From a virus (lineage: Duplodnaviria > Heunggongvirae > Uroviricota > Caudoviricetes): a stretch of DNA of 64,000 nt. The DNA is taken from positions 64,001-128,000 of IMG/VR virus record IMGVR_UViG_3300049215_000772; one strand, 5' to 3'. Made by a program: the position numbers and the translations under genes. Under the pieces are notes generated by a model, which had not been told where the DNA came from, searched no databases, and saw only the letters and a list, made by a program, of their open reading frames with translations. Of this stretch, positions 57,713-58,372 are shown one piece after another. Each line of letters opens with the position of its first letter. The first letter of the stretch is position 1.

Positions 57713-58093
57713 ATGATCCCGAAAATCAAGTATGAGTGTGCTGATGGTTCCGACACCGAGGCTAAAAGCCCATCCATTGCCTTGATGCACTGGTTGGGCC
57801 GTCAGATGCCGATGGAAACTCCCAGGGACAAGGTGTACGTTGGCGGGCTGATGAGAGTTGGCCCGCCAGTGCCCGGTCCCCAACACAAGGCTTTCTTCAC
57901 AACGGTATTCGCCGCCATCGAGAGGCGTTGGAACAAGTCGTGTGATGTTGACGTGAATGACTATCCCGACATGGTTTCCTTCATGGGCGACGAGGCAGAA
58001 CAAATCCACGAGATCATGTGTCTCGACATTCTCAAGTGGTTGGAACAACATGGCGACATCAGGAACCTGGTCGTCGAAGAAATTGGTGGGTAG
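57713..58093 (+). CDS. hypothetical protein
   Basis: GGAGG RBS. Confidence 0.7.
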   Translation: MIPKIKYECADGSDTEAKSPSIALMHWLGRQMPMETPRDKVYVGGLMRVGPPVPGPQHKAFFTTVFAAIERRWNKSCDVDVNDYPDMVSFMGDEAEQIHEIMCLDILKWLEQHGDIRNLVVEEIGG

Positions 58094-58196
58094 CCCCTTG
58101 GTCTAAACAATGACGCTTGGGCTGAACCCCAAGAGGTCCAGTAACCGGCCACCGGCTCCGAGCCGAGTTCGGGAGAATGGGGTGCGGCTACCCATC
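58085..58196 (+). ncRNA. tRNA-like structured element, unit 1
   Basis: 11-bp closing helix GGTGGGTAGCC/GGCTACCCATC; D-like arm GTC-TAAACAAT-GAC; CTTGGG/CCCAAG arm; CCAGTAACCGGCCACCGG; CCGAGTTCGG. Confidence 0.6.
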
Positions 58197-58229
58197 AGTC
58201 CAATTATCGGGTTTCGTTTACATCAAGTG

Positions 58230-58372
58230 GAACCGCTCCCTGGTCTAACATAGGACGCCCAGCAAAGTAGAAGGCGAGGGAGCAGTCGCCCTCGACATAC
58301 AATGCTGGGAAATCCAGTAACCGGCCACCGGATTAAGTTCCGAGATCGGGAACCCTGGGGTCGGGCGGTTTC
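58230..58372 (+). ncRNA. tRNA-like structured element, unit 2
   Basis: closing AACCGC/GCGGTT; GTC-TAACATAG-GAC; CCCAGCA/TGCTGGG arm with insert; identical CCAGTAACCGGCCACCGG; CCGAGATCGG. Confidence 0.6.

Follow-up and report, generated by a model that had tools for sequence, protein, structure and literature searches.

A family of tRNA-like structured RNAs in giant T4-like phages is built around a conserved internal-loop hairpin

Among described systems, the nearest analogue of the RNA elements reported here is the rnaD/rnaC pair of phage T4 (species 1 and 2 RNAs), for which we know of no function. Like the T4 RNAs, the elements U1 and U2 form a tandem pair on the tRNA strand of a T4-type phage and are of similar size (118 and 144 nt, compared with 119 and 139 nt in T4), although the T4 pair directly follows tRNA-Arg in a tRNA cluster, while U1 and U2 lie ∼2 kb upstream of a tRNA array. 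Furthermore, rnaC ends in a tRNA-type T-arm and an acceptor-like stem, as do two other members of the new family, L406 and L029. There is, however, no sequence similarity between the T4 RNAs and the family, and the internal-loop hairpin conserved in the latter is absent from both rnaC and rnaD. The bacterial and phage Y RNAs (YrlA), which act with Ro60/Rsr, likewise combine a tRNA-like module with a conserved helix to which a protein binds, and often occur as several tandem copies. They differ from the present RNAs, which end in an acceptor-like helix and carry the conserved motif at the tip of an arm. The Rfam YrlA model gave no match to the elements, and TROVE/Ro60 (PF05731) scored below the cut-off in all five phage records that contain the family (G000, G001, G002, G009 and G010, of which G001 is complete at 532 kb), while control genomes matched.

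With canonical tRNAs (RF00005), among them intron-containing and anticodon-lacking tRNA bodies of these phages, the elements share arrays, strand and a cloverleaf-like four-way junction, some with D-loop-like GG blocks. L406 and L029 have a 7-bp acceptor stem and a T-arm, whereas U1 and U2 lack the T-arm. In engineered tRNA scaffolds a foreign hairpin replaces or extends a tRNA arm, and the cell processes and stabilizes the product. L406 and L029 look like a natural version of such constructs, except that the engineered cargo is chosen by the experimenter, whereas here it is one conserved natural motif. ARAGORN and Rfam identified no tmRNA at the element coordinates. Similarly, there was no Rfam ribozyme match at E≤10 (the inclusion of the theta model in that search is unconfirmed), and the helix order, compared by hand, is unlike the nested double pseudoknot of HDV-like and theta ribozymes.

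U1 and U2 are located in G000, an IMG/VR virus record of 134 kb. Bases 64001–128000 of this record constitute the window, the 64,000-nucleotide stretch of DNA that was analysed, and coordinates without a record name refer to it. The completeness of G000 is 27% (CheckV), and the record is therefore a fragment of a giant phage, with genes for a T4-type major capsid protein, gp32, terminase and a class I aminoacyl-tRNA synthetase in addition to a long tRNA array. The region 58094–58401 is intergenic, between the TAG stop codon of the upstream ORF (58091–58093) and the start at 58402 of an ORF encoding an NT5C-like nucleotidase. This stop codon is part of the closing helix of U1, and ∼18 nt separate the end of U2 from the ribosome-binding site. 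As neither a sigma-70-like promoter nor an intrinsic terminator was found flanking the pair on the plus strand, U1–U2 appears to lie inside an operon between the two ORFs. Further upstream (52345–56083) the window contains a ubiquitin-like conjugation set, comprising E2-like, JAB and ThiF(E1)-like genes.

U1 (58082–58199, plus strand) is predicted to fold as a cloverleaf-like RNA. Its closing helix (58082–58095 with 58186–58199) consists of 14 bp, includes the TAG of the upstream ORF and has a p value of 0.002 against 500 genomic control positions in an ungapped-helix test, which was preferred to RNA duplex prediction because the latter paired the long flanks over their whole length and was meaningless. 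Within this helix lie a D-arm-like block, TGGTCTAA...GAC (58099–58114, plus strand), with a 3-bp GUC/GAC hairpin, and a variable arm (58116–58133, plus strand) in which 6 bp, CUUGGG/CCCAAG, close a 6-nt loop. The core hairpin (58145–58172, plus strand; 37.3 bits) follows, with an outer helix (58145–58148 with 58169–58172), an internal loop of CCAC (58149–58152) opposite AGU (58166–58168), an inner helix of CGG(CU) with (AG)CCG, and the triloop CCG. U2 (58229–58372, plus strand) has the same layout. An 8-bp helix (58229–58236 with 58365–58372) closes the unit, the variable arm (58258–58309, plus strand) has an outer stem CCCAGCA/UGCUGGG with a 38-nt insert that contains an inner hairpin (58273–58294), and helix P3 (58313–58317 with 58355–58359, plus strand) bears the core arm. 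In the U2 core (58321–58349, plus strand; 35.6 bits) the outer helix is CCGG:UCGG, the internal loop CCAC opposite AGA, and the inner helix CGGA:UCCG, capped by the hexaloop UUAAGU. U1, U2 and an orthologue of U2 in G009 (locus L379) are four-way junctions consisting of the closing helix, a small D-loop-like hairpin, the variable arm and a long arm in which helix P3, UCCAG:CUGGG, leads to the core.

The relationship between the units is evident from their sequences. The 18-mer CCAGTAACCGGCCACCGG, which the original prediction had reported as identical in both, occurs exactly twice, at 58138 and 58314, where ∼0.03 occurrences would be expected by chance. Other common blocks are CCGAG(T/A)TCGGGA, TGGGGT and TGGTCTAA-N5-GACGC. 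The last of these is the predicted D-arm-like block, which is indeed common to both units, although its spacing is five nucleotides rather than the four described; it is kept in U2 at 58241–58256 and in the G009 orthologue, and is conserved without covariation. Also borne out are the 6-nt loop and the 38-nt insert of the respective variable arms, and the proposal that stems differ between the units but still pair, which holds for the closing helices (14 bp in U1, 8 bp in U2) and for the variable arms. Folding against dinucleotide shuffles yielded z-scores of −2.65 (U1) and −3.33 (U2), each more negative than that of the reverse complement. While the 3′ halves of U2 and its G009 orthologue are ∼95% identical, in the variable arm five pairs have changed on both sides, and pairing is kept in all five. 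The 3′ strand of the lower helix of U1 (58179–58189) is complementary to codons 2–5 of the NT5C-like gene (58407–58417) over 11 bp, including two G.U pairs; this complementarity could be a competitor of U1 folding or a chance occurrence (p about 0.02).

The core is not confined to U1 and U2, but occurs in 12 copies in the five giant T4-like phage records, five of them in G000 (U1, U2, a third copy, C3, at 46774, and two past the window end). A scan of IMG/VR with the core pattern led to two copies in G001. Seven sites in these two records scored 35.8–45.1 bits with a covariance model, R1, while no other match reached 12 bits. They are U1, U2, C3 and G000:131265 (L029, just past the window end) in G000, and 24359 (plus strand), 471810 and 498653 (both minus strand) in G001. 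Among relatives picked by capsid-protein alignment, for which 15 records were scanned, R1 identified the U2 orthologue in G009 (34 bits) and the divergent copies L386 (G009) and L385 (G002). A second model, R2, added G010:81312 and G000:131083 (L406). C3 (46741–46819, plus strand; core 46774–46799; 40.9 bits with R1 and 39.7 bits with R2, the model that also gave the scores of U1 and U2 above) is a full copy, as expected from the predicted recurrence at 46.8 kb. An NAD-dependent DNA ligase gene follows after ∼180 nt, and the nearest tRNA is 13 kb away. The body of C3 is decayed-tRNA-like and barely structured (z=−0.22). The genes around C3 encode a T4 Pnkp-like polynucleotide kinase-phosphatase (44251–45264) and the NAD-dependent DNA ligase (46979–49099), placing RNA- and DNA-end repair enzymes next to this tRNA-like remnant.

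A further recurrence predicted at 30.2 kb is doubtful. The partial sequence ACCGG-CCA-UCGGU followed by AGUUCG is present (30244–30262, plus strand), and a loose scan for a GC-rich 4-bp stem around CCA with AG(A/T)TCG within 40 nt returned the seven copies then known together with this site, compared with none in reversed controls. The site, however, has no CCG strand, is unscored by both R1 and R2 and cannot adopt the nested fold described below. It is at most a remote relative of the family. The surrounding region (30150–30368) appears to be a strongly structured intergenic RNA (z=−4.19) with a strong intrinsic terminator at 30332–30366 and no Rfam match.

Only 18 of 183 ORFs are common to G000 and G001, with identities of 24–58%, and the core is kept nonetheless. 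In the 70-nt flanks of the seven copies from these two records no pair is significantly alike. The core is therefore an island of conservation. None of the common ORFs adjoins a core copy, and no partner protein was found among them. All copies whose position and strand were checked lie between genes and have the orientation of these neighbours. Most copies are in or beside tRNA arrays, and for nine of them the distance to a tRNA gene or a tRNA-type T-arm is about 1 kb or less. No tRNA gene was identified in the 3 kb of the G010 locus. This location among tRNA genes, together with the cloverleaf-like layout, upholds the description of the elements as tRNA-like.

The known distribution of the elements is limited. 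Exact-pattern scans of IMG/VR with the 18-mer and two versions of the core matched only G001 beyond G000. No match was obtained to U1–U2 in GenBank phages (blastn) or to the elements in the E. coli genomes searched, the element is absent from loci related via flanking proteins, and queries with the DNA ligase and with a single capsid protein found no relatives. In a pattern scan of metagenomes the matches listed were all GC-rich coding false positives (acetyl-CoA-synthetase-like and others), and the same is true of the 30 least GC-rich among the matches listed in a scan of a genome collection; both scans are uninformative on distribution. The prediction of an undescribed RNA family is supported by the result of the Rfam search, in which no family matched even at E≤10. 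A minus-strand match to 5S rRNA (14 bits, E=7.2) was not significant and was ascribed to the classical GUUCG/CGAAC complementarity. Near-identical repeats at G009:42800–48900 (L401–L419), recurring each 200–600 nt with CCACCGGCTTGTCCGAGT, show a partial match of 15–18 bits to the core model; they are probably a repetitive coding region outside the RNA family. These data show that U1 and U2 are members of a real, undescribed family of structured, tRNA-like phage RNAs.

Comparison of the 12 copies reveals a fold of the core that differs from the one originally proposed, in which a CCA-triloop hairpin was accompanied by a separate CCGAGNUCGG hairpin (CCG-AGNU-CGG). The sequences instead form a single nested hairpin of ∼25–29 nt. 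An outer helix, CCGG:UCGG, ends in an invariant G.U pair, followed by an internal loop of C(C/G)AC opposite AG(U/A), an inner helix, CGG:CCG, and a terminal loop of 4–8 nt. Across the 12 sequences 97.6% of the cells of the nested fold are paired, compensatory changes occur at three pairs (five cells), and the covariation score was attained by none of 500 shuffles. In the two-hairpin fold, by contrast, 85.7% of the cells are paired, 12 are broken and no pair is compensatory; 460 of 500 shuffles attained its score, which is no better than shuffled sequence. The triloop hairpin accounts for five of these broken cells, in four sequences. Covariation in related genomes, as anticipated, is thus present, but for the nested hairpin. 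The sample comprises 12 sequences from five records, of which the two found with R2 are biased toward the nested fold; in the ten sequences found independently of the nested model the fold is 100% paired, and two of 500 shuffles attained the score. Furthermore, L385 and L386, which contain compensatory changes, were found by a model built on the rival two-hairpin fold. The divergent copies L385 (ACGG...UCGU), L037 (UCGG...UCGA) and L386 (CAGG...UCUG) disrupt both hairpins of the original proposal, but their changes are compensatory when the initial CCGG is paired with the final UCGG, and the second CGG with CCG.

Invariant in the core are the two pairs that close the outer helix (G-C and G.U), the internal loop as given above, and the pairs at either end of the inner helix; all 12 sequences have the G.U pair. 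Eleven copies have CCA, the exception being the U2 orthologue of G009, which has CGA. The segment between the conserved halves, a linker in the two-hairpin reading, is free to vary in length and sequence. It is a terminal loop of GAAA, GCGA, CUUG, CCAU, CACGA or CAUUG, or forms extra pairs (CGGCU:AGCCG in U1 and CGGA:UCCG in U2). In four copies the outer helix is longer by 2–3 bp. The RNA strand is fixed by these data, since the constant G.U, like the U.G, U-A and A-U variants, can pair on this strand only; consistent with this, the folding z-score is always better on this strand than on the reverse complement. The G010 copy has two internal-loop motifs stacked within a single long hairpin. 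The locus of this copy (L394, G010:81190–81400) contains a larger RNA with a 13-bp closing helix followed by a U-run, and is AT-rich, lacking tRNA genes for at least 1.5 kb. A relaxed regular expression for the internal loop was not used, as it gave 42 matches in reversed controls compared with 36 in the real sequence. A resemblance of the core to E. coli trpT, in which it would represent a Trp-type anticodon arm, variable loop and 5′ half of the T-arm, was also considered, but is probably coincidental, because the covarying nested fold pairs those parts differently.

Only the hairpin is constant; the bodies that carry it vary, from genuine tRNA frames at one end to cloverleaf-like folds at the other. 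The member L406 (G000:131043–131195, past the window end) has a perfect 7-bp acceptor stem, GUACCUA/UAGGUAC, U8–A9, and a T-arm, GCCGG-UUCGAGU-CCGGC, that abuts the 3′ strand of the acceptor stem. A very long arm takes the place of the anticodon arm and bears at its tip the core, which is capped by GAAA. When introns are permitted, ARAGORN reports this element as an amber-suppressor-type tRNA(CUA) with a 54-nt intron. L029 (G000:131228–131365) begins 33 nt downstream of L406, the two forming a second tandem pair (positions 1279–1601 of locus L029), and has a 7-bp acceptor stem, a D-arm and the T-arm CGAGG-UUAAAAU-CCUUG. The tRNA arrangement of a 7-bp acceptor stem stacked on a 5-bp T-arm with a UUCRANY loop is complete in L406, nearly complete in L029 and absent from U1, U2 and C3. 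Under the same ARAGORN settings U1, U2, C3 and L029 were uncalled, as were all of the seven G000 and G001 copies then known. The Infernal tRNA model (RF00005) detected no copy, its best local score being 15.5 bits (L029) against a threshold of 29 bits, and neither the tRNA covariance model nor ARAGORN reported anything at 58082–58372 or 46741–46819. A 7-nt anticodon loop is likewise absent, the arm of U1 having a loop of 6 nt and that of U2 its 38-nt insert. Given that the scaffolds are very divergent, the body may be irrelevant to function.

The reading that we favour, with a probability of roughly 0.55, is that U1 and U2 are small RNAs on a tRNA scaffold, which presents a sequence-specific docking motif. 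They would be transcribed as parts of tRNA or mRNA polycistrons. Judging by the tRNA-type bodies and the location in tRNA arrays, the tRNA-like body could lead to excision and stabilization by the tRNA-processing machinery, while the internal-loop motif would be the docking site for a trans factor, protein or RNA, common to the phages or to their hosts. A sequence-specific docking site on a carrier would be expected to show the combination observed here, in which the internal loop is invariant, the helices on its flanks covary, and both the terminal loop and the scaffold are free to vary. The RNAs may act as a scaffolded ligand or as a decoy. A more specific version, which we put forward tentatively, is that giant phages use tRNA bodies as natural expression scaffolds for an internal-loop aptamer that sequesters or recruits a host or phage factor. 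If so, the family would represent a new class of phage RNA decoy, present as several paralogues across very distant phages of one habitat, with translation, tRNA-repair or defence proteins as candidate targets.

The giant-phage tRNA arrays contain unassigned RNAs, of which one family is now defined with a covariation-supported fold. One short motif is conserved to a much greater degree than the phage proteins, which points to a specific molecular partner, and the hairpin of 25–29 nt, with its invariant 4×3 internal loop beside a G.U pair, provides a handle on the non-decoding tRNA-like RNAs of infection, whose role has been in question since the discovery of the T4 species 1 and 2 RNAs. The nested hairpin also corrects the structure beneath the proposed CCA mimicry.

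Sequencing runs from moss metagenomes contain the U1–U2 stretch, and a DNA contig from the same habitat has a copy of the G001 type. Two metatranscriptome records each provided two RNA-library contigs, both of read length and of equal depth, one coinciding with U2 (58227–58377) and the other inside the next ORF (58567–58717). The two records have identical figures, and are perhaps one data set filed twice; U1 is uncovered, which is uninformative. The contigs are compatible with transcription of the region; they do not establish a discrete RNA, and DNA carry-over is possible.

The alternative that survives best, although we consider it unlikely, is that the copies are cis-acting signals for processing or stability, which would mark cleavage by RNase P, Z, E or III or by a phage endonuclease, or protect the ends of neighbouring tRNAs and mRNAs, with no free functional RNA. 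Repeated intergenic processing hairpins have a precedent in the RNase III sites of T7, and the location of most copies between tRNA genes, the lack of a promoter or terminator around U1–U2 and the fit of this pair between a stop codon and a ribosome-binding site are consistent with such a role. A processing signal, however, would not need two to five differently scaffolded paralogues per genome with an invariant internal loop, and tandem duplication, seen in both U1–U2 and L406–L029, is unusual for punctuation. The member class with a complete acceptor stem and T-arm predicts the release of a stable, tRNA-sized product.

Considerably less probable is a riboswitch-like function, in which the tandem units would be aptamers governing the downstream nucleotidase gene. 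The pair does occupy the 5′ leader directly upstream of a 5′-nucleotidase-family gene, both units consist of several helices meeting at a junction of conserved sequence, and U1 is complementary over 11 bp to codons 2–5 of that gene. Against this, the features downstream of the copies differ (nucleotidase, DNA ligase or tRNA genes), no expression platform or terminator was found, and conservation resides in one hairpin rather than in a junction pocket.

We judge equally improbable a reading at the DNA level, in which decaying tRNA pseudogenes contain the core as a recognition site for a homing endonuclease, recombinase or repressor. In support of such a site, T4 encodes SegB in its tRNA cluster, and the 27 bp that SegB recognizes within tRNA genes include a conserved motif of 11 bp (PMC2330249). 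In addition, the core contains the palindromic half-sites CCGG..CCGG and CCGA..TCGG and is an island of identity amid unalignable flanks. The substitutions observed (C-G to U-A, A-U or U.G), however, preserve the distal RNA pairing while breaking both palindromes, and the G.U pair is invariant. Moreover, the two halves of the core are 4 to 8 nt apart and the gap is occupied by GNRA or CUUG loops, all copies with checked flanks are oriented with transcription, and no endonuclease gene adjoins the copies. The DNA operator CCGG-N3-CCGG, offered as an alternative in the original prediction, is disfavoured on the same grounds, as strand-specific pairing, co-orientation and the free spacer all favour the RNA level.

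Finally, the proposal that a triloop CCA mimics the tRNA 3′ end as a decoy for ribosomes, synthetases or toxins can be all but dismissed: CCGG-CCA-CCGG may be drawn as a hairpin and CCA is nearly universal among the copies, but the breaks in that hairpin are uncompensated, the covarying fold joins the 5′ CCGG to the distal UCGG, and mimicry is without a structural basis because CCA lies in the 4×3 internal loop and the U2 orthologue reads CGA. A base-stacked CCA in an internal or terminal loop is not a free 3′ end.

The tRNA genes of these phages display unusual features of their own. Many of those in G001 and G000 contain insertions of 20–60 nt at or near position 37/38, and the insertions in tRNA-Pro (6212) and tRNA-Cys (14780) of G001 have GTCTCAGCGCCAATT in common. 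In the G001 and G000 records tRNAs with CUA, UUA and UCA anticodons are also present. Together, the insertions and these anticodons suggest enzymatic tRNA splicing and possible stop-codon suppression.
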